From an uncultured Candidatus Berkelbacteria bacterium (GTDB lineage Bacteria > Patescibacteriota > UBA1384 > UBA12157), in contig CAIRFN010000013.1 of the NCBI GenBank assembly GCA_903877885.1, positions 2,754-66,753 of the forward strand: a DNA stretch of 64,000 nucleotides, read 5' to 3'. Under the pieces are notes generated by a model. That model was given only the letters and a program-made list of their open reading frames with translations. It did not search any database and was not told where the DNA came from. Each line of letters begins with the position of its first letter. Position 1 is the stretch's first letter. A program made the translations under genes and the position numbers. This document shows positions 6,887-58,985 of this stretch, piece by piece.

Positions 6887-6924
6887 TTTTGTTTGTTTAG
6901 ATTATACCAGATATCATTAGGTTT

Positions 6925-7676
6925 AACCAAATTACTGACTTCGTAGGTTAGTAATTTGGTTAAACAAATAAATGCTTTTTAATTATTGCTAAATCTTTTT
7001 GATCATTAATTCGACTACTAACAAATTTTTGATATTGTTTTGGTTGAATATCCATCAGACTATTAAAATCGCAAAATGATATAACGTCTTTTCCTAGATA
7101 CTCATCATATGAAGAAAAGCTCCAATCCTCCGGCTCTTTAACCAGTCCGGCTGTTACTGGATTAAGATGTTGATATCTCGTCAAATGCAGTAATTGTTCG
7201 TCACTTTCAACTAAAACATTTTTAAATCTTCCTTCCCATAACGGACCTTTGCGACAATGTTTAGTATTAAAGTATCGAGTATAGCCATTAAGGATATCGG
7301 CAACATATTTTGAAACACCATTTTCTTTTAGTTGTTTTAAAACTAAATGGATATGAGTCGGCATAATACAATAAGCAATTATATGTACTAACTTTTCACG
7401 ATCTTTTGAAATTGTAAATAAGGCATTATCAAAACCAAATTGACCGACTAATCTTGATCTCATAAAAGCCGACAAGCTCAAATCATTTTTAATCTGATAA
7501 TATCTAATAAGGTCGATCATCCGCACATATTCTTCATCATTATTAAAAATTTTGTAACCAGCGATGCTTTTCGTGCAAATATGATAGACTTGATCATTAA
7601 CCAAAAAATCTTTTCTCATATTTGAATTATATCATTACTAAACCCAAATTACTAACCTACGAAGTTAGTAATTTGG
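6925..7676 (-). mobile_element. REPtron-like unit: RAYT (IS200-like Y1 transposase) gene flanked by inverted REP hairpins
   Basis: Hairpins aaccaaattactgac-ttcgtagg-ttagtaatttggtt (6925-6961) and cccaaattactaac-ctacgaag-ttagtaatttgg (7643-7676) are inverted copies flanking the transposase ORF. Confidence 0.65.
6960..7619 (-). CDS. REP-associated tyrosine transposase (IS200/IS605 TnpA-like, Y1 HUH family), copy 1
   Basis: HUH motif HIHLVL; catalytic-Tyr region LTRYQHLNP; paralogous to 21600-22271 and 41462-42133. Confidence 0.8.
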   Translation of the reverse strand: MRKDFLVNDQVYHICTKSIAGYKIFNNDEEYVRMIDLIRYYQIKNDLSLSAFMRSRLVGQFGFDNALFTISKDREKLVHIIAYCIMPTHIHLVLKQLKENGVSKYVADILNGYTRYFNTKHCRKGPLWEGRFKNVLVESDEQLLHLTRYQHLNPVTAGLVKEPEDWSFSSYDEYLGKDVISFCDFNSLMDIQPKQYQKFVSSRINDQKDLAIIKKHLFV

Positions 7677-13631: not shown

Positions 13632-13700
13632 TTGACATCAAGAGAGAGAGAGTAAATTTAAGGTGGAAGGGATCACCTTTCTAAAATTAAATAAGAGGAG
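13632..13700 (+). promoter_or_regulatory. promoter/leader of paralog A: TTGACA, (AG)6 repeat, TAAATT, conserved leader hairpin AAGGTGgaagggatCACCTT, AGAGGAGG RBS
   Basis: About 85% identical to 29609-29688 except for (AG)n repeat number. Confidence 0.5.
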
Positions 13701-13707
13701 GCAAACC

Positions 13708-14472
13708 ATGTCAGACGAAACTTTACAACCGGAAGATGTAGAAAATTTTGTAGCACAAACTAATAATGCGCAAGCAATAGAAACAACAGAGAAAGTTAGA
13801 ACTAGAGAATCAGAGATTCAAACCAATATTGATTTCTGGAAAAACTTGGCATTAGAAGGTATAGAAGTTAATGAAAATGAAATTCGAGCCGCTATTGAAG
13901 TCCTACCAGAAGTCGAAGGGTTTGACTGGTATATCGCCATTCCTGAAGGTGTCAAAACGTCCGAGGTTTGGCAAAAAGTAATCACGCGTTATCCCAACGA
14001 TCCGTCTTTAAATGAATTAAATGGTCTAAAATTGCCACGCGAAACCAAAGAAACCTTTGCTGTGGCTGCCAGGTACAGCAAAAAACCAGACGCTGTCCGC
14101 GAAGAAGGACTAGTCAAATCAGCCAAGGATTGGGAGCGATCAATGTCGGTCTATGAGTCTCCAAATTGGGAAATAGCTGAACACACCTACATGTCTCCCT
14201 TGGAAAGAGTAGTGGCAGAACTGCGCTGGAACGCTGAAAACGGCACTCATTTAGATGAAGGAGATGAGATCACTTTTTGTCCCGGGTCCCGGACAACTGA
14301 CGGTCGTGTCCTTGGCATGCACTTTAACACCTTATATAACAATTGCACCTTCAATAGTTATGATCCTTCCACTAAAAAATGGAATTTAAGAGTCCGCCAG
14401 GTCGTAACTAAAGACACTAAAGTTGAATCAAATACTAATTTCTTTGAACAACGGCCATATCCTACAAAATAG
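13708..14472 (+). CDS. hypothetical protein, paralog A of duplicated family (start MSDETLQPE)
   Basis: N-terminal ~60 aa nearly identical to the 29689 ORF; conserved motifs FDW.IAIP.G, AARYS, C.GSRT.DG, TKDTK; no known domain recognised. Confidence 0.6.
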   Translation: MSDETLQPEDVENFVAQTNNAQAIETTEKVRTRESEIQTNIDFWKNLALEGIEVNENEIRAAIEVLPEVEGFDWYIAIPEGVKTSEVWQKVITRYPNDPSLNELNGLKLPRETKETFAVAARYSKKPDAVREEGLVKSAKDWERSMSVYESPNWEIAEHTYMSPLERVVAELRWNAENGTHLDEGDEITFCPGSRTTDGRVLGMHFNTLYNNCTFNSYDPSTKKWNLRVRQVVTKDTKVESNTNFFEQRPYPTK

Positions 14473-14538
14473 TCATGTAGCCCTGAACTTAACAAAAATG
14501 ACGCTATTACGTCTGAAACCCCGACTCAATAAATTTTA

Positions 14539-14580
14539 CCCGCAAAGCAATTCGAAAGAAACGCAATGCGGGTTTTTAAA
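14539..14580 (+). terminator. rho-independent terminator of paralog A
   Basis: cccgca...tgcggg hairpin + TTTTT; homologous terminator follows paralog B. Confidence 0.6.
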
Positions 14581-14657
14581 TTGAAATGATTTTATAGATT
14601 GCCACGCTTCCCGCCCGCCGGCGGATCGCTCGCAATGACAAAAAAATTATTTTTCTA

Positions 14658-14742
14658 ACCTGTCACAGCCCACTTCGGAAGTGGGCTATATGGTTAAAGT
14701 TTAGTCCGTTACCACCTGGGAGGTGGCAACATATGGTTAGAG
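14658..14742. repeat. REP doublet (agcccacttcggaagtgggct-atatggtta ; ccacctgggaggtgg-caacatatggtta)
   Basis: Two GC-rich hairpins each followed by ATATGGTTA; whole ~85-nt unit repeated at 30566-30651. Confidence 0.65.
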
Positions 14743-14744
14743 AA

Positions 14745-14779
14745 AAAATCTAATCAAAAAGGCTACCCAAGGGCAGCCC
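14745..14779 (-). terminator. terminator of small acidic-protein gene
   Basis: gggctgcccttgggtagcc hairpin followed by T-run on minus strand. Confidence 0.5.
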
Positions 14780-20670: not shown

Positions 20671-21551
20671 AGCAGGAATTAAAAATCAAGGATTTATATC
20701 GCGAGATAGTATCCGAACTAAAATCAAAGGAGATTAGTACTCCAGAACTCGATGCTCGAGTTATAATTTGCTATGCGCTGAAAATGACAGACGCGGATTT
20801 TTTTAAAACAGATAACGATCTAATTTCAAATTATCAGGCTGACAAGATTATAAAACTGGTTAGGGAGCGAGTAAAAAATATTCCCGTGGCCTATATTTTA
20901 GGTCAAAAAGAATTTTATGGCCTTAATTTTTATGTTAATAAAAATGTTTTAATCCCCCGCCCAGAGTCGGAATGGTTGGTTGAAGAAGCAGTAAAATATA
21001 TTAAAACCCAAAAAAGAAAAATCGCGATTTTGGATCTGGGAACCGGTAGCGGCAATATCATTATTTCGATTTACAAAAGTTTAATGATTGGCAATTGGCA
21101 ATTTGGCGTTAAGTTTCATGCTTCGGATATTAGTTCAAAAGCTTTATTTATAGCTAAAAAGAATGCGAAAAAATATAAGCTTGATAAAAAAATCAAATTA
21201 TTTCATTCCGATCTGTTTTCTAACTGGCGATTGCAGAAAAAATTTGATTTAATCGTGGCCAATTTGCCGTACGTACCGAAAAACAATGAACCGTTAACTG
21301 TTTACCGTTCACCGATCTCATTTGAGCCACAAAATGCCATTTTTGCATCAGATAACGGCGCGGAAATTATTAAAAAGTTCTTGGTTCAAGCCAAAAATTA
21401 TTTAAATAACAATGGTTTAATTTTAATCGAACTCGATCCGCGAAACGCGGCTGATCTTAAGGAATTTACTCAATCGAACTTCCCTAACACCAAAATCCAG
21501 CTCGAAAAAGATTTAGCTGGATTTGAACGCTACCTTATAATTAGAATCTAA
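20667..21551 (+). CDS. prmC: release factor glutamine N5-methyltransferase PrmC/HemK
   Basis: SAM-binding LDLGTGSG; substrate motif reads NLPY instead of the usual NPPY; 4-nt overlap with prfA. Confidence 0.85.
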
Positions 21552-22343
21552 CACTGTACGGCGACCTCGGAGGTAGGCGAACGGTGTTAGACAAATATTT
21601 TAACCCGAATAGTTATCTATCATCATATTCTTTATAACAGAGATTTGTTTCTGATAAGATTTACGATCATTAACAAATTTTCGATATTGTTCAGAAGTAA
21701 AATCAAATAAGCCGTCGAATTGACATAAATTAGCACTATCAATTTTCAAATATTCCAGATAGGAAGAATGGAGCCAATCCTCTGGCTTCTGAACTAAACC
21801 AGCCGAAGAAGCATTAAGATGAAAATATCGTGTTAAATGCAATAACTGATTATCTGTTGAAACTTCCACATCTTTAAATTTACTCTCCCATAGAGGCCCG
21901 GACCGATGATGCTTGGAATTGAAATATCTTGTATAACTATTTAAAACTCTGGACATGAACTTAGAAATTCCTTGGTCGGCGACTTGTTTCAATATTAAAT
22001 GAATGTGAGTTGGCATAATTGTATATGCGATAATTTCAACTAGAACTTGGCTGTTTAATTGAACATTCTGGATTATTTTTTGTTGCAAAAAGGGATTTAG
22101 ATCAGAAAATTTAGAATAACAATAATTGAAATCTATGTATCGATAAAGCTTTAATAGTTCCTTTATTCTTGAAAAATCTTGCGGATCATTAAAAATAGTA
22201 TACTTTGCAATACTACGACTAAAAACATGATAATAATGTCCATTTGCTAATGGATATTTTCGTATATTCATTTATTTAATCATACCATAAGATAATAAAA
22301 TTAACACTGTACGCCTACCTCGGAGGTCGTCGTATAGTGTTAG
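21550..22343 (-). mobile_element. REPtron-like unit 2: RAYT gene flanked by REP hairpins aacactgtacg...tcggagg...cgaacggtgtta
   Basis: Imperfect palindromes at 21550-21589 and 22301-22343 with TCGGAGG loops flank the ORF. Confidence 0.6.
21600..22271 (-). CDS. REP-associated tyrosine transposase (IS200-like Y1), copy 2
   Basis: HIHLIL HUH motif; LTRYFHLN Tyr motif; N-term MNIRKYPLANGHYYHVFSRS like copy 3. Confidence 0.8.
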   Translation of the reverse strand: MNIRKYPLANGHYYHVFSRSIAKYTIFNDPQDFSRIKELLKLYRYIDFNYCYSKFSDLNPFLQQKIIQNVQLNSQVLVEIIAYTIMPTHIHLILKQVADQGISKFMSRVLNSYTRYFNSKHHRSGPLWESKFKDVEVSTDNQLLHLTRYFHLNASSAGLVQKPEDWLHSSYLEYLKIDSANLCQFDGLFDFTSEQYRKFVNDRKSYQKQISVIKNMMIDNYSG

Positions 22344-29608: not shown

Positions 29609-29688
29609 TTGATTTCGAGAGAGAGAGAGAGAGAGTAAATTTAAAGTGGAAGGGATCACCTTTCTAAAATTAAATAAGGAGGCAAATC
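29609..29688 (+). promoter_or_regulatory. promoter/leader of paralog B: TTGATT, (AG)9 repeat, TAAATT, conserved leader hairpin, AAGGAGG RBS
   Basis: Homologous to 13632-13700 but with 3 more AG units; an extra TTGACA lies at 29598. Confidence 0.5.
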
Positions 29689-30501
29689 ATGTCAGATGAA
29701 ACTTTACAACCAGAAGCTGCTGAAGATTTTGTGGCAACGATTAATAATGTGCAAGATGTAGAAACAACAGAGAAAGTTAGAACCAAGGAATCAGAAATTC
29801 AAGCCAATATTGATTTTTGGAAAATTAATGGTAAAAAATATTTTGGTATTGAGATTGATGAACAGGAAATAAGAAATGCAATTGAATCATTGCCAGAAAA
29901 AGAAGGTTTTGATTGGTTAATTGCTATACCTAAAGGGTTAAAATTATCTGATGTATCTATGAATAAATGGTCGCACGATTATACTATTTACGATCCAATC
30001 AATGACGCAAATCCAGAAAAAAGGCAAGCCCACAGGGATTTAATTGATGCTATTCAAATGCCACGCAATGCACAGGAAACTTATGCCATCGCCGCTCGTT
30101 ATAGTGCCGAACCAGATGATGGAAGCTATGAACATGATTATATGGGCAAAAATCATAAAAGCAGTTTAGAATGGGAACAGACAGGTAAAGCATTTATGTC
30201 TCCTATGGAATGGATAATTGCTGATATGCGCTTTAATGTCAATACTGATATGCGTTTTGATCTTAAGACCGATAACCACCTAGATACTGCTCACAGACTT
30301 CCTCTTGTTGTTCACAATAGTACACTTTGTGCTGGTTCAAGAACACCTGATGGCAAAGTACCTTATGTGAGTTGGAGCCAGTTAGGTGCCGGAGGACTTA
30401 GCTTTAATACTCTAAAACCAGAAAATAAGATTTTTTCAGATATTGGTGTTCGCGAAGTAATAACTAAAGATACTAAAACTGAAGCAGAACAAACTGAATA
30501 A
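29689..30501 (+). CDS. hypothetical protein, paralog B of duplicated family
   Basis: N-terminus and several internal motifs shared with the 13708-14472 ORF. Confidence 0.6.
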   Translation: MSDETLQPEAAEDFVATINNVQDVETTEKVRTKESEIQANIDFWKINGKKYFGIEIDEQEIRNAIESLPEKEGFDWLIAIPKGLKLSDVSMNKWSHDYTIYDPINDANPEKRQAHRDLIDAIQMPRNAQETYAIAARYSAEPDDGSYEHDYMGKNHKSSLEWEQTGKAFMSPMEWIIADMRFNVNTDMRFDLKTDNHLDTAHRLPLVVHNSTLCAGSRTPDGKVPYVSWSQLGAGGLSFNTLKPENKIFSDIGVREVITKDTKTEAEQTE

Positions 30502-30519
30502 TAGTTTTTTTAAATTCAA

Positions 30520-30558
30520 CCCGCAGAACAAATCGAAAGATTAATCTGCGGGTTTTTT
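30520..30558 (+). terminator. rho-independent terminator of paralog B
   Basis: cccgcag...ctgcggg hairpin + T6. Confidence 0.6.
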
Positions 30559-30565
30559 AATCCCA

Positions 30566-30651
30566 AACCTGTCACGGCCCACTTCCAGGGTGGGATATAT
30601 GGTTAAAATTTACCAAGTTACCACCTTGGAGGTGGTAACATATGGTTAGAA
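30566..30651. repeat. REP doublet (cccacttccagggtggg-atatatggtta ; gttaccaccttggaggtggtaac-atatggtta)
   Basis: Homologous to 14658-14742; the second hairpin is identical to the one inside mnmA. Confidence 0.65.
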
Positions 30652-30701
30652 AACAAGCTAAACCCGCCTGCCGGTAGACAGGACTTGATCTACGGAAAAT
30701 T

Positions 30702-39350: not shown

Positions 39351-40541
39351 CTATTTAATAATTCCTCCACCCAGAACCTCTTCTTTGTAATAGAAGACGA
39401 CTGATTGACCAGGCGTAATTGCTCGTTGCGGTTTCTTAAATATTACTCTAACTTCTTCATCATTAATATGTGTAATCTGACAAGGTTCGATTGGATGACC
39501 ATGACGGATTCTGGCACTTATATTATTTGTTTTTGGTTTATTAATCCAGTTTAAATTTGTGGCCACCAGTTCTTTTTGGAATAAATCTTCATCTTGACCG
39601 ACAATTAATTCATTGGTTTTACTCTTCAATTTTATCACATAATAAGCGTTCGGACCACCCAAACCCAAACCTTCGCGCTGACCGATTGTGTAATTTATTA
39701 AACCGTCATGCGTGCCGATTTGGGTTTTGGTTTTGATGTCAATAATCGGACCAGGCTCGGTTAGATTTTGAGCGTAGCGGCGTAAAAAGCCGCCAACATT
39801 TCTGTCCGGAATAAAACAAATGCCTTGGGACTCACGGCGCGTCGCGGTCGGAAGTTGCATCTCGAGAGCCAGTTGGCGAATTTGCGGTTTAGTATAATCG
39901 CCACAAGGAAATAAAACGTGGGCTAATTTTTCTTGTGTTAGCGTCCACAAAAAATAAGTTTGATCTTTAACTTTGTCTTTCGGTTGCAAAAAATGATATC
40001 CGGTTTTGTCTTTTTTGATTCTGGCGTAGTGACCAGTCGCTAAATATTCGGCATCTAACTCAAAGGCTTTTTGCATCAAAAGTTCGCCTTTAATATCACG
40101 ATTACAAATCACGCACGGATTTGGCGTGCGACCCGATTCATATTCTTCAATATAATAATCCACCACTAATTTTTTAAATTCTTTTTCAAAATTAACAACA
40201 TAAAAAGGAATGCCCAGCTTTTTGGCCACCGCGCGAGCGGCAGTCGAGGCGTCCACCGAGCAACAGATATTTTCGCGCAAACCAGATGTTACCACCTTGG
40301 AGGTGGTAACTTGAGGTTCAGCCCAAAGCTTCACGGAGTCTGAATCTTTGTCGCCGGAATCGCTCCAAAGCTTCATAAAAATTCCCACGACGTCAAAGCC
40401 CTGTTTTTTTAGTAGCGCGGCGGCAACCGATGAGTCCACTCCGCCAGACATTGCGCACACTACTCGTGGTTTCTTTCTGTCATTGCGAGCCGCCGCAGCG
40501 GCGTGGCAATCTTTCTTTAAATTGTCATTTTCTTTTTTCAT
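39351..40541 (-). CDS. mnmA: tRNA-specific 2-thiouridylase MnmA, carrying in-frame repeat insertions
   Basis: SGGVDSS PP-loop, catalytic Cys residues, C-terminal barrel; extra ~25 aa after FMKLW and a GC-rich N-terminal extension. Confidence 0.9.
   Translation of the reverse strand: MKKENDNLKKDCHAAAAARNDRKKPRVVCAMSGGVDSSVAAALLKKQGFDVVGIFMKLWSDSGDKDSDSVKLWAEPQVTTSKVVTSGLRENICCSVDASTAARAVAKKLGIPFYVVNFEKEFKKLVVDYYIEEYESGRTPNPCVICNRDIKGELLMQKAFELDAEYLATGHYARIKKDKTGYHFLQPKDKVKDQTYFLWTLTQEKLAHVLFPCGDYTKPQIRQLALEMQLPTATRRESQGICFIPDRNVGGFLRRYAQNLTEPGPIIDIKTKTQIGTHDGLINYTIGQREGLGLGGPNAYYVIKLKSKTNELIVGQDEDLFQKELVATNLNWINKPKTNNISARIRHGHPIEPCQITHINDEEVRVIFKKPQRAITPGQSVVFYYKEEVLGGGIIK
40283..40375. repeat. 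REP hairpin (gttaccaccttggaggtggtaac + ttgaggttcagcc) inside the mnmA reading frame, with 11-nt direct repeats ccaaagcttca
   Basis: 23-nt hairpin identical to 30617-30639; encodes AEPQVTTSKVVTSG, absent from E. coli MnmA. Confidence 0.7.
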
Positions 40542-40586
40542 CAGGTCTATTTTACCATATTTTTCAAAATTTTACCACCTTTACCA

Positions 40587-40620
40587 CCGCCACTTCGGAA
40601 GTGGCGGTGAGGTTTAATTG
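40587..40620. repeat. REP hairpin ccgccacttcggaagtggcgg + tgaggtttaattg
   Basis: Same TTCGGAAG loop and GAGGTTT tail as other REPs. Confidence 0.6.
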
Positions 40621-40693
40621 AATAGTATTTAAATTAATTCTACTACCTAAAAAACCGCCTGGACTAACCAAAGCGGTTTTTTGATATTTTCTT

Positions 40694-40765
40694 TGTCATT
40701 CCGGACTTGATCCGAAATCTAGTTTATTTAGCCCGCCCCGTGATGAACGAAGTGAATTTTACGGG
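40694..40765. repeat. MITE-family copy (tgtcattccgga ... gatgaacgaagtgaa ... acgggg)
   Basis: Carries the TGTCATTC TIR and the gaacgaagtgaa core shared with the uvrB/iscS-embedded copies; overlaps the stop of the 40759 gene. Confidence 0.5.
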
Positions 40766-41367
40766 GTGAATCGGAAACTAGCAAGAATCGCTTTTTGAGT
40801 CTCGGATAAATTAGCTTTATTTTCAGCTGATGCGTCGAAATTAAAGAAGTTGCCACTGTTTTTTACAATAACCTCGTACTGAGTTTTAATTCCCGTAGCC
40901 ATATCTTCGTAGGCCGGCAGATTAGCAAACGTTATTTTCTTCGGCTCAAAAATATTGCCAGTTTCAGCTAACTTCGTAACCAAACCATCTAAATCTAAAC
41001 TCGAAAGCTGAATTTTTTTACCCGTCGCACTATAAGTAAATTCATGATTAATATAAATTGTTAGATCACTAGCACTATCCTGATTATTAATCATAATTTG
41101 ACCCGAGCTATCATTAATATCAACGATATAATTTTTTGGATATTTAAAACTAAATCCCAAATCCTTATTTTCATACGTTTTCCAGTCAGCGGTGGAAATA
41201 ACTGATGATGTTGGAACAGGCGGTTTTGGTGTAACGATTGGTTTAGTCATTAACCAATATCGCCAGCCGAAAAAGAAAGCGACGATGACGATGACGCCGA
41301 TTAAAATTCCGAGTAACCATTTTGTTGATGTGTGCATTTCTCTCCTTTGATTTGTTATAATTATCAT
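40759..41367 (-). CDS. membrane-anchored exported protein, paralog family B (copy 2)
   Basis: Same architecture as 35410-36024; ends FRFTP. Confidence 0.5.
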   Translation of the reverse strand: MIIITNQRREMHTSTKWLLGILIGVIVIVAFFFGWRYWLMTKPIVTPKPPVPTSSVISTADWKTYENKDLGFSFKYPKNYIVDINDSSGQIMINNQDSASDLTIYINHEFTYSATGKKIQLSSLDLDGLVTKLAETGNIFEPKKITFANLPAYEDMATGIKTQYEVIVKNSGNFFNFDASAENKANLSETQKAILASFRFTP

Positions 41368-41423
41368 CTCATCATTTTAAACAAAAAGAAATATCACACG
41401 CTAGCGCCACAAAGAAATTTTCT

Positions 41424-42182
41424 AACCATATAGCGTACACCCTGGAAGTGTACATTGAGGTTTAGCCGGAGTAATTATCAATCAAAATATTTTTGATTAG
41501 CGCCAAATCGCGTTGATATGATTTTTGGTCAAGAACAAACTTCTTGTATCTTTTTGGCGACATATCAATGATTTCTTTAAATAAGCAAATCGGATTATTC
41601 ACTTCCTCGCAAAATTCTTTTAGAGAAGAAAAAGGCCAATCAAACGGATTATCAACCAAACCAGCTGAACTCGGATTTAGGTGCACATAGCGTGTTGAGT
41701 GTAATAATTGATTATCATTTTCAATTAAAACATTCCTGAAATGTCCTTCCCATAATGGACCGTTTCGATGATGTTTTAAGTTAAAATATCTAGTATAACT
41801 ATTTAAAATTTTACCGATATATTTTGAAATTCCATCATCTTTTTTCTGCTTTAAAATAAGATGAAAATGCGTCGGCATAATACAATAAGCCACAATTTCG
41901 ACCAAAACATCGTTATTCTTTTTTAGGCTATTTAAAATAGCCGTTTGAGCCATCATCTCCAGTTCTTTAAACCTTGAGTACTTATGATTAAATTCCGCAA
42001 AACGGTACATATCCAAGAGTTCTAAAATCCTATAATAATCATCGTCATCATTAAAAATCTGATATTTAGCGATACTCCGACTAAAGATATGATAATATTG
42101 GTCGGTTGCTAAAGGCGTTTTTCTAATATTCATAAGTCGATTATACCACAATGTACACCCCGGGGGTGTACATTGGTTTAAC
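41424..42182 (-). mobile_element. REPtron-like unit 3: RAYT gene flanked by inverted REPs (aaccatatagc-gtacaccctggaagtgtac-attgaggttt / aatgtacaccccgggggtgtacatt-ggtttaac)
   Basis: GTACAC/GTGTAC stems in inverted orientation on both sides of the ORF. Confidence 0.65.
41462..42133 (-). CDS. REP-associated tyrosine transposase (IS200-like Y1), copy 3
   Basis: HFHLIL HUH motif, STRYVHLNP Tyr motif; start set at MNIRKTPLA (42133) because the upstream ORF extension is encoded by the REP hairpin. Confidence 0.8.
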   Translation of the reverse strand: MNIRKTPLATDQYYHIFSRSIAKYQIFNDDDDYYRILELLDMYRFAEFNHKYSRFKELEMMAQTAILNSLKKNNDVLVEIVAYCIMPTHFHLILKQKKDDGISKYIGKILNSYTRYFNLKHHRNGPLWEGHFRNVLIENDNQLLHSTRYVHLNPSSAGLVDNPFDWPFSSLKEFCEEVNNPICLFKEIIDMSPKRYKKFVLDQKSYQRDLALIKNILIDNYSG

Positions 42183-42200
42183 AATCATTAAATCTCCAAC

Positions 42201-47954: not shown

Positions 47955-48779
47955 CTACAGCTGATTTTTCTCTGCCGCTTCGACCACGTTTTTCAAAAGT
48001 TTCATCACTGTAATCGGACCAACACCGCCGGGAACCGGCGAGTAACTGGCAACTTTAGTATAAACTTCGGGATCAATATCGCCAACGGTTTGACCGCTAC
48101 TTTCGGCTGTGCCGGCGTCGATAATAATCGCACCTGATTTTACCATATCCGCTTTAATTAGGCCGGGTTTTCCGACGCCGGAAATAATAATATCAGCGGT
48201 TTTTGTAATCGAGTTTAAATCAGCCGTTTTAGAATCACAAACGATTAAATCAATATTTTTTTCTGATAGGATTTTTTCCAACGGCTGGCCGACCAACTTT
48301 CCATGACCAACTAAAACTACTTTTTTCTGCGCTAAGTCAATTTTATGAAAATCTAAAAGTTCCAAAATCGCCCCGGCGGTAGTTGGCGCGTACCTGCCTG
48401 CCGGCAAGGCAGGTCCACAATTTAGACCGTCAACATCCTTTTTTGGATCAATGTTGGCCAAAATTTTAGCTGTATCAAAGTTTTCTGGTAGCGGTAATTG
48501 AACAATAATGCCTGAAACATTTTTATTCAAATTCAAGTCATTAATTATAGTAATAATATTTTCTTCAGCAATGTCATCAGGAAATTTGTAAAGTCGATAA
48601 CCGATACCCAAACTTTCTGCTTTTTTTTGTTTCATTTGGGTATATAAAACACTAGCCGGATCATCGCCAACTAAAATCACCGCTAAAAATGGCAAAATAT
48701 TTTTCGCTTTTAAAACTTTTATTTTTTGTTTTAATTCTTCTTCGATAGCTTGAGCTACTGGTTTACCATATAGAATCAT
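47955..48779 (-). CDS. folD: bifunctional methylenetetrahydrofolate dehydrogenase/cyclohydrolase
   Basis: YTQMKQK, NADP-binding GxGxxVG, DVDG motifs. Confidence 0.88.
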   Translation of the reverse strand: MILYGKPVAQAIEEELKQKIKVLKAKNILPFLAVILVGDDPASVLYTQMKQKKAESLGIGYRLYKFPDDIAEENIITIINDLNLNKNVSGIIVQLPLPENFDTAKILANIDPKKDVDGLNCGPALPAGRYAPTTAGAILELLDFHKIDLAQKKVVLVGHGKLVGQPLEKILSEKNIDLIVCDSKTADLNSITKTADIIISGVGKPGLIKADMVKSGAIIIDAGTAESSGQTVGDIDPEVYTKVASYSPVPGGVGPITVMKLLKNVVEAAEKNQL

Positions 48780-58325: not shown

Positions 58326-58913
58326 TTATTTAGTGAATTGGAAAGTGGAAACAATTTGATCTGCAGTTGGTTTAAGATTGTCGTCACCATTACTAAATTC
58401 AATAGAAACAACATAATATTTATTATTTTCCTGAATTTGATATTCATAGCCATTAGCATAAGTATATTTGGTTGCTTGTTTGCCAGCGAAAGTAGTAGCT
58501 GTCCCTTCACTTCCTTCTTGGATCGTTTTACCATATTGACTAGCATTATCGACATTAACTGTCACAGTCCAATTAGCCGAAGTCGATGGCGGCTCAAAAC
58601 CATAGGTATCTGCTACACCAAAGGTCGTATGCATATCTTTAGCTGTCCAATCGGACGGATATTTAATCGAATAACCATAAGTTGTATTTGTATACGTTTT
58701 CCAGTCAACCATAGAAATTGGTGATGCAGAAACTGAAGGCGAGACTGACGGTTCGATGGTTGGTAACTCGTTGACGGAAACTGGAGTAACGATCGGTGTA
58801 GCCACTGGTTTATTTTGATTCATTAAAACCCAAGTCCAAAAACCGGCGCCGATTAAGATGACGATGATAAGAATAACCCAGAGCCACTTGTTCGATGATT
58901 GATCTTGTTCCAT
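58326..58913 (-). CDS. membrane-anchored exported protein, paralog family B (copy 3)
   Basis: Start set at MEQDQ (58913) with GGAG RBS; TM, linker, W.TYTN...YSIKYP domain ending FQFTK. Confidence 0.5.
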   Translation of the reverse strand: MEQDQSSNKWLWVILIIVILIGAGFWTWVLMNQNKPVATPIVTPVSVNELPTIEPSVSPSVSASPISMVDWKTYTNTTYGYSIKYPSDWTAKDMHTTFGVADTYGFEPPSTSANWTVTVNVDNASQYGKTIQEGSEGTATTFAGKQATKYTYANGYEYQIQENNKYYVVSIEFSNGDDNLKPTADQIVSTFQFTK

Positions 58914-58940: not shown

Positions 58941-58985
58941 AACCTTATAATGTACACCCTGGAAGTGTACGTTGGTTTTAATTAC
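58941..58985. repeat. REP hairpin aaccttataa-tgtacaccctggaagtgtac-gttggttttaa
   Basis: Near-identical to the left REP of RAYT3 (41424-41467). Confidence 0.6.

Follow-up and report, generated by a model that had tools for sequence, protein, structure and literature searches.

A repetitive extragenic palindrome probably copied in frame into mnmA of a Candidatus Berkelbacteria bacterium

Organization of the mnmA locus

The window analysed here, a 64,000-nt stretch of contig CAIRFN010000013.1 from an uncultured Candidatus Berkelbacteria bacterium (assembly GCA_903877885.1), carries on its minus strand mnmA, the gene for the tRNA 2-thiouridine synthase, and within the coding sequence of this gene lies a perfect hairpin belonging to a family of repetitive extragenic palindromic (REP) sequences (Table 1). 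The open reading frame (ORF) is intact and its product matches the Pfam family tRNA_Me_trans over its full length (E=1.9e-74), together with the _M and _C domains; the PP-loop SGGVDSS, the cysteine pair C143/C146 and C242 are all conserved in the ortholog alignment, and the best Foldseek matches to the modelled protein are the solved structures 2hma and 2deu (TM 0.80). Upstream of mnmA, ~1.1 kb from the hairpin, lies a gene whose predicted product resembles the REP-associated tyrosine transposases (RAYTs) and which is itself flanked by REPs of the family, the arrangement known as a REPtron.

Table 1. Positions in the window of mnmA, its repeats and the related elements
Feature	Position	Strand	Remarks
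mnmA (tRNA 2-thiouridine synthase)	39351-40541	-	intact 396-aa ORF carrying the insert; Pfam, conserved motifs, Foldseek
Perfect REP hairpin GTTACCACCTTGGAGGTGGTAAC, 23 nt	40288-40310	.	10-bp stem, TGG loop; minus strand codes for V78-T85
Extended imperfect palindrome, minimal REP unit	40280-40318	.	39 nt (13 codons), AACC-N4-hairpin-N4-GGTT
Right-flank tail TTGAGGTTCAGCC	40311-40323	+	12/13 positions shared with TTGAGGTTTAGCC, which follows the REP at 41435-41453
11-mer CCAAAGCTTCA, copy 1	40323-40333	+	second KLW codons, V70-W73 on the minus strand
Spacer between the 11-mers, 31 nt	40334-40364	-	codes for SDSGDKDSDS; at 40341-40350 the MKLW codons in inverted copy (9/10)
11-mer CCAAAGCTTCA, copy 2	40365-40375	+	native M56-W59 codons
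Identical intergenic hairpin	30617-30639	+	second hairpin of the tandem REP doublet 30566-30656
Intergenic hairpin with 2 mismatches	14708-14730	+	second hairpin of the paralogous REP doublet 14657-14747
Family REP hairpin CACCGCCACTTCGGAAGTGGCGGTG	40585-40609	.	upstream of mnmA, 44 nt from its start
RAYT-like Y1 (HUH) transposase gene, 223 aa	41462-42133	-	Pfam Y1_Tnp, NCBIfam, 4ER8
REP at the 3' end of the RAYT-like gene	41416-41470	+	TAACCATATAGC-GTACACCCTGGAAGTGTAC-ATTGAGGTTTAGCC; flanks on both sides like those in mnmA
5' REP of the RAYT-like gene (CAATGTACACCCCGGGGGTGTACATTG)	42134-42184	+	

A REP family hairpin within the coding sequence

The hairpin in mnmA was found in two exact copies and one copy with two mismatches in the 64 kb, all on the plus strand, compared with 0 expected from shuffled sequences. 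Beyond this stem the similarity extends to a wider family: a scan for its core (AC-YYNNNRR-GT plus stem) returned 11 copies in the window as against 0.6 in shuffles, and the family as a whole comprises about 12 copies, of which all but the mnmA copy are intergenic. Although ORFs take up about 92% of the window, no conserved gene other than mnmA contains a family copy. Alignment of the copies revealed an apical core that is invariant (CAC-YYNNNRR-GTG), lower stems that vary and AACC...GGTT as the outer frame, and the same AACC...GGTT scaffold is present in family copies at the related loci L002, L007, L008 and L010 (P and L numbers are our handles for homologues and loci). The mnmA hairpin conforms to the description of a REP as a short (20-40 nt) imperfect stem-loop palindrome, and the family, as surveyed in the window, is multi-copy and mostly intergenic.

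The resemblance includes the flanks. In the extended palindrome around the hairpin the arms are 18 nt long and 83% complementary, and the mnmA copy is laid out as AAACCAGAT-(hairpin)-TTGAGGTTCAGCC, to be compared with TAACCATATAGC-(hairpin)-ATTGAGGTTTAGCC for the 3' REP of the RAYT-like gene, which abuts that gene's stop codon; the two have in common the left-hand AACCA(G/T)AT and the right-hand TTGAGGTT(C/T)AGCC. Part of this right flank is the tail GAGGTTCAGCC at 40313-40323, which matches GAGGTTTAGCC beside the RAYT-adjacent REP. The mnmA copy thus combines a hairpin identical to the one at 30617 with flanks closest to those of the REP at 41416. An earlier note on this DNA had reported an in-frame REP hairpin with its tail inside mnmA, identical to the intergenic one at 30617-30639, and these observations bear it out: the match is exact, the tail is in place, the reading frame is kept, and the element is a family palindrome, otherwise intergenic, that the closest orthologues lack.

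Searches with Rfam gave nothing at gathering thresholds anywhere in the window, and its E-value mode, applied around mnmA, the RAYT-like gene and the 30617 doublet, returned only noise (E ~1). Two metagenome contigs (L085 and L088) carry near-identical hairpins (ATTACCACCTGGGAGGTGGTAAT), each immediately preceded by another hairpin (CACCCCTCCATGGAAAGGGGTG); the context is conserved and does not look like the Candidate Phyla Radiation (CPR), and these hairpins may represent an unrelated structured element. A family hairpin just upstream of the mnmA start is also found in L007 (5904-5926) and L010 (5938-5958). Another hairpin of the window, at 48392-48414, lies inside a FolD-like ORF and could be native sequence.

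The insert lies in a predicted disordered loop and is absent from the closest orthologues

The homologues of MnmA come from Patescibacteria, and among named genomes those of Candidatus Berkelbacteria are the closest. Across the stretch from FMKLW to CCS the window protein has 41 aa, compared with 22 aa in 82 of the 111 homologues, for which the consensus reads FMKLWAEKxDxTDLVRENICCS (canonical loop DNA GGCTGAAAAAACCGAT...). The translation around the insert is ...FMKLWSDSGDKDSDSVKLWAEPQVTTSKVVTSGLRENICCS..., and the sense strand runs TTT ATG AAG CTT TGG / AGC GAT TCC GGC GAC AAA GAT TCA GAC TCC G/TG AAG CTT TGG / GCT GAA CCT CAA GTT ACC ACC TCC AAG GTG GTA ACA TCT GGT TTG / CGC GAA AAT, giving FMKLW-SDSGDKDSDSV-KLW-AEPQVTTSKVVTSGL-REN. 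The excess over close orthologues amounts to 19 aa, of which ~5 net are contributed by the hairpin segment (13 residues in the window versus 8 in orthologues) and 14 by the segment with the duplicated KLW. The nearest neighbours in a neighbour-joining (NJ) tree (P0002, P0003 and P0007) have the canonical loop and lack the extra segment; the extra blocks are visible as well in the DNA alignment of the window mnmA with L090 (the locus of P0003) and L005. Flanking coding DNA shows a mean column identity of 68% with the orthologues. A query with a 47-aa peptide for further homologues bearing the insert yielded no candidates.

Structural comparison places the insert in a loop. In the AlphaFold2 model (mean predicted local distance difference test score, pLDDT, 82.7) residues 64-91 score below 50 and form a coil between a strand (50-57) and a helix (96-109), while the solved MnmAs detected with HMMER cover residues 20-64 and 91-395 and leave residues 65-90 (26 aa) unmatched. 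The earlier estimate of about 25 added residues holds for the comparison with solved structures, not for that with close orthologues, where the excess is 19 aa; the alignments with relatives and with structures that the note had proposed agree with its view that the protein probably tolerates the insert. The position in a loop that is predicted to be disordered and is variable in length is consistent with such tolerance. Because this loop is predicted to be disordered, its length varies across CPR MnmA and the catalytic motifs are intact, the insert is most probably neutral or nearly neutral.

The window also contains a second family of palindromic repeats (GATTGCCACGC...GC-rich...GCTCGCAATGACA), at 40467-40510, inside mnmA, and at 14594-14640, between genes. 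The mnmA copy is in frame in the N-terminal extension (DCHAAAAARNDR; pLDDT <50), and similar extensions occur in the orthologues P0012, P0005, P0017 and P0020; translation might instead begin at a GTG (V28), which would leave this palindrome untranslated.

The 11-nt direct repeat belongs to an adjacent segment

The 11-mer CCAAAGCTTCA occurs exactly twice in the window (0.06 expected), so that the KLW codons are duplicated, as the earlier note had described. Its suggestion that the two copies are a target-site duplication flanking the hairpin fails on position: on the plus strand the order is hairpin (40288-40310), 11-mer, 31-nt spacer, 11-mer, which puts the hairpin outside the interval bounded by the repeats, and what they bracket is a spacer unique in the window. 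Neither is this reading supported by relatives, because the hairpin-free P0008/L002 has an analogous duplication (FMKLWAE-RSDDTASGS-MKLWAE-KTDPTDLV-RENICCS), with synonymous differences between the two copies. The target-site duplication expected of a miniature inverted-repeat or classical transposon was not observed at the other REP copies, which show only the flanks of their own unit.

The 11-mers are 42 nt (14 codons) apart, which is the length of the canonical unit of M-K-L-W plus a 10-residue loop, and the spacer includes an inverted copy of the MKLW codons (9/10 in the window, p ~0.001; 8/8 in L002, p ~0.013). A direct-inverted-direct order of this kind suggests either template switching or duplication. 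The 11-nt direct repeat is part of an adjacent 42-nt, 14-codon duplication-like segment, not the footprint of the hairpin event. The origin of the spacer itself was sought in two comparisons, neither of them significant: homology with the corresponding segment of P0008/L002 (p=0.09 by base shuffle, 0.39 by codon shuffle) and descent from a diverged native loop (p ~0.2); the copy-1 loop of L002 bears a weak, borderline likeness to the native loop (p=0.02-0.05). In P0084 and P0044 the loops (FMKLW-SPFAEASGDK-SDKDAATDLV-RENICCS) look like two alternative 10-residue loop types in tandem, and this pattern in the aligned proteins suggests that loop duplication recurs in the MnmA family.

Hairpins at the same site in other CPR lineages

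At the same site of mnmA, REP-type hairpins were found in at least three other Berkelbacteria-like orthologues: TTCATCCTGACT-TCCAA-GGTCGGGATGAA in L003/P0019, TCCCAACT-TCCAA-GGTTGGGA in L004/P0015 and AGCCCACT-TCCAA-GGTGGGCT in L008. Their stems differ, while the TCCAA loop, the orientation and the frame (TSKV) are those of the window. The hairpin of L008 resembles the window's intergenic hairpin at 14667, and its locus, like those of L002, L007 and L010, holds further family REPs with AACC...GGTT flanks. Over the four carriers 94% of the stem cells pair and five of the nine pairs are changed on both sides; the four were monophyletic in 0 of 100 NJ bootstraps, and each has a hairpin-free nearest neighbour in the NJ tree. 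Four of the six possible placements of the hairpin (two orientations by three frames) are free of stop codons, and if placement were random among these four, the sharing of orientation and frame by three further lineages would have an estimated chance of ~1/64.

Loops were also surveyed in 67 species-level CPR mnmA genes. Expanded loops (>=24 aa, n=13) had longer stems than canonical ones (n=54; mean 10.0 versus 6.0 bp, p=6e-5) and lower folding z-scores (-2.3 versus -0.05, p=4e-4), and unrelated perfect hairpins lie in the same loop of L081 (23 bp, ~2583-2632) and L058 (16 bp, ~2033-2067). Since CPR mnmA genes have strong in-frame hairpins at other positions too, tolerance of the loop is clearly part of the explanation for the recurrence; a target preference for the motif AAAACC may be another. 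The class of 25-aa loops containing STTLEV was considered as a reversed REP and rejected, the DNA of L091 and L092 forming a weak 6-bp stem with no TTGGA loop. Elsewhere in the gene, L060 has an unrelated perfect in-frame 15-bp hairpin at about residue 237, and L013, L058 and L065 have ACCTGCC...GGCAGGT hairpins near the 3' end or C-terminus that match the 'LPCRQAG' insert of P0115.

RAYT-like genes and further repeats of the window

The product of the gene at 41462-42133 scores 31.6 bits against Pfam Y1_Tnp (cutoff 23), E. coli TnpA-REP is the closest relative of known structure (4ER8, E=1.4e-8) and the best NCBIfam match is REP_Tyr_transpos, 'REP-associated tyrosine transposase' (70.9 bits). 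These sequence matches mark it as a Y1/HUH protein similar to TnpA-REP. Two paralogues are encoded at 6960-7619 and 21600-22271; the three proteins (219-223 aa) are 50-57% identical and share the HUH motif (HFH/HIH) and RY.HLNP (HLNA in one paralogue). Each gene is bracketed by its own inverted hairpin pair, forming units at 6921-7676, 21549-22343 and 41416-42184. Near-identical copies of the RAYT-like genes were absent from the window, and the three look like domesticated single-copy genes rather than active insertion sequence (IS) copies. RAYT-like genes were also present in 5 of the ~85 other CPR loci examined.

Syntenic relatives (the P0002 contig and L090) have FtsX, a 141/150-aa gene and mnmA, without the PsbP-like and RAYT-like genes. 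The corresponding block of the window (40585-42175, with the PsbP_2-like and RAYT-like genes), missing from both, is bounded by REPs at 40585-40609 and 42149-42175, and a partial paralogue of the PsbP-like gene (58657-58726) adjoins a family REP at 58948-58974.

Other repeats accompany the family. The regions 13641-14747 and 29624-30656 constitute a segmental duplication of ~1.1 kb that consists of a 55-nt upstream stretch (98% identical), paralogous ORFs of 269/270 aa without a Pfam match and, at the 3' end, the 91-nt tandem REP doublet (84% identical, with compensatory stem changes). A third short motif, GGACTTGATC (tgtcattccggacttgatccgaaatc), is found at 30683-30700 and 40700-40725, between genes and near REPs.

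Discussion

We consider it probable that a REP-type palindrome of the genome's own stock was copied into the mnmA coding sequence. The inserted unit would be AACC-N4-(GTTACCACC-TTGGA-GGTGGTAAC)-N4-GGTT, 39-45 nt long, and the copy would have kept the frame, coding for ~13-15 residues (A74/E75 to L88) in the PP-loop domain between strand beta2 (FMKLW) and the helix after RENICCS. Two routes may be envisaged: a RAYT-type, single-strand and strand-specific integration at Lys-Thr codons (AAAACC), or a short-patch recombination with another REP through AACC/GGTT microhomologies. IS200/IS605-type Y1 enzymes are not known to produce a target duplication. Such single-strand Y1/HUH transposases insert 3' of a short target motif (PMC5027513), and a strand-specific insertion like that of IS608 would fit both the shared orientation of the hairpins and the AACC to the left of every copy.

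Several observations weigh against this interpretation. The mobility of the family is putative, and with the closest available genome at ~82% protein identity an empty site is not demonstrable at nucleotide resolution. Both junctions of the insert fall in microhomology with the native loop, which leaves its boundaries ambiguous (39, 45 or 54 nt, the last applying if the second KLW arrived with the REP). The exact mnmA stem is present in only three copies in the 64 kb and flanks none of the three RAYT-like genes; exact-pattern scans gave 0 matches to the hairpin in the genome contig collection and 5 in metagenome contigs, from 3 independent contexts none of which is related to the organism, a number that by a rough estimate is about what chance would give for a 21-mer in such a collection. 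The stem foot reads GTAC/GTTAC/TTAC in place of the GTAG or CGTC tag, although the superfamilies named after these tags include most, not all, REPs (PMC3733652). Finally, the three RAYT-like proteins score 60.6-70.9 bits against REP_Tyr_transpos, under the cutoff of 80; because of these scores we regard them, on sequence, as divergent relatives and not as equivalogs.

A copying event that involved no RAYT, in which a REP close by was the source and replication template switching or short-patch gene conversion acted through the native-loop microhomologies AACC/GGTT (CTGAA...GATTTAG), is the less likely but most serious alternative. Both junctions coincide with sequence resembling the native loop, the mnmA copy looks chimeric, with the hairpin of 30617 and flanks like those of 41416, and the direct-inverted-direct MKLW codons of the adjacent 42-nt segment are typical of template switching. 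By itself, however, such copying leaves the same orientation and frame in four lineages unexplained; on present data it is inseparable from RAYT-mediated integration.

That the hairpin is instead a conserved functional stem-loop of the mnmA mRNA or DNA, serving for example in regulation or translational pausing, inherited vertically from an ancestor with compensatory changes and lost in most lineages, appears improbable. The common site, orientation, frame and TCCAA loop of the four orthologues would agree with it, as would their paired changes and the abundance of hairpins in expanded CPR loops, but the element is absent from 82 of the 111 homologues, among them all nearest neighbours of the four carriers, and the carriers do not form a clade. 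The window stem also matches an intergenic repeat at 23 of 23 positions, in contrast to the much greater divergence of the coding DNA around it from the orthologues; in more distant CPR lineages (L081, L058 and L076) the hairpins found at this position are unrelated, and Rfam gave no match. Least probable of all, and very unlikely, is an assembly or sequencing artefact, in which the palindrome would have entered mnmA through a repeat-induced chimera. Short-read assemblers can be misled by palindromic repeats; against this, DNA from a separate assembler (Logan, L001) is 100% identical over 4977 nt, although it may have been built from the window's own reads, and 13 contigs (ENA, NCBI, Logan), some of them perhaps re-assemblies of the same reads, carry the identical protein. 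The intact mnmA frame and the comparable in-frame hairpins at the site in unrelated assemblies speak against an artefact as well.

The locus has counterparts in several known systems. REPtrons have been described in E. coli, Pseudomonas and Stenotrophomonas (PMC3333891, PMC8266576, PMC3733652) and likewise combine short imperfect palindromes, repeated mostly between genes, with a single-copy Y1/HUH transposase-like gene bracketed by inverted REPs, with several REP subfamilies and RAYT paralogues per genome, and with REP doublets. They differ in that the host here is a CPR (Berkelbacteria-like) bacterium, that the conserved parts are the apical CAC-YYNNNRR-GTG and outer AACC...GGTT and not a GTAG/CGTC tag, and that the 219-223-aa proteins fall below the NCBIfam equivalog cutoff. 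IS200/IS605 elements such as IS608 (PMC5027513) share the Y1/HUH enzyme that recognizes hairpins and the strand-specific insertion 3' of a short motif, whereas the elements of the window are bare hairpins with no transposase inside, and the RAYT-like genes, at 50-57% identity, are unlike active IS copies. In the literature searched we found no paper linking CPR or Patescibacteria with RAYT or REP, and these phyla are not mentioned in a survey of Y1 proteins (PMC6006769).

In-frame intragenic REPs are known from Opitutus terrae, Thauera, Xanthomonas and, as RPE-4 and RPE-6, from Rickettsia, the latter two classed as CGTC REPs; as in mnmA, single units or dimers stand in frame in conserved genes, add ~10-30 residues in loops or linkers and have been argued to be neutral loop insertions (PMC3733652). 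Many of those cases concern DNA replication and repair genes (PMC3733652), in contrast to the tRNA-modification enzyme of the window, where in addition different REP subfamilies occupy one site in at least four non-sister lineages. The likeness to the Rickettsia palindromic elements (RPEs) that the earlier note had drawn is a fair one, as it is for other intragenic REPs (PMC3733652): these palindromes, too, are tolerated in frame inside ORFs and code for surface segments. The resemblance is one of behaviour only, since host and length differ and the mnmA element has no known sequence relationship to RPE. Classic RPE-1 elements, at ~100-150 nt, are much longer than the mnmA element; RPE-1 is restricted to Rickettsia, and no RAYT link has been described for it.

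Nearly all work on REP/RAYT systems concerns Proteobacteria and a small number of other phyla, and the present case extends them to a new phylum: 64 kb of a streamlined, 92%-coding CPR genome hold three REPtron-like units and about a dozen REPs, with one REP absorbed into a conserved tRNA-modification enzyme. An in-frame REP is a known kind of event; new here are the phylum and the recurrent insertion site with different hairpins in related bacteria. The hairpins in one CPR loop form a natural series for the study of REP target specificity and of the share of palindromic repeats in CPR protein length variation, and these inserts, together with the element in the N-terminal extension, can distort CPR marker-gene alignments, start-codon calls and phylogenies. 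A more speculative and in our judgement rather unlikely proposal is that integration of Berkelbacteria-type REPs is site- and strand-specific, its target in the beta2-alpha2 loop of MnmA being the Lys-Thr codons (AAAACC), a coding motif that would mimic the REP's own AACC flank, such that the non-sister lineages, at least four in number, record repeated RAYT targeting. If this were true, REP/RAYT systems would recurrently diversify protein loops in gene-dense CPR genomes and would not be mere intergenic passengers.

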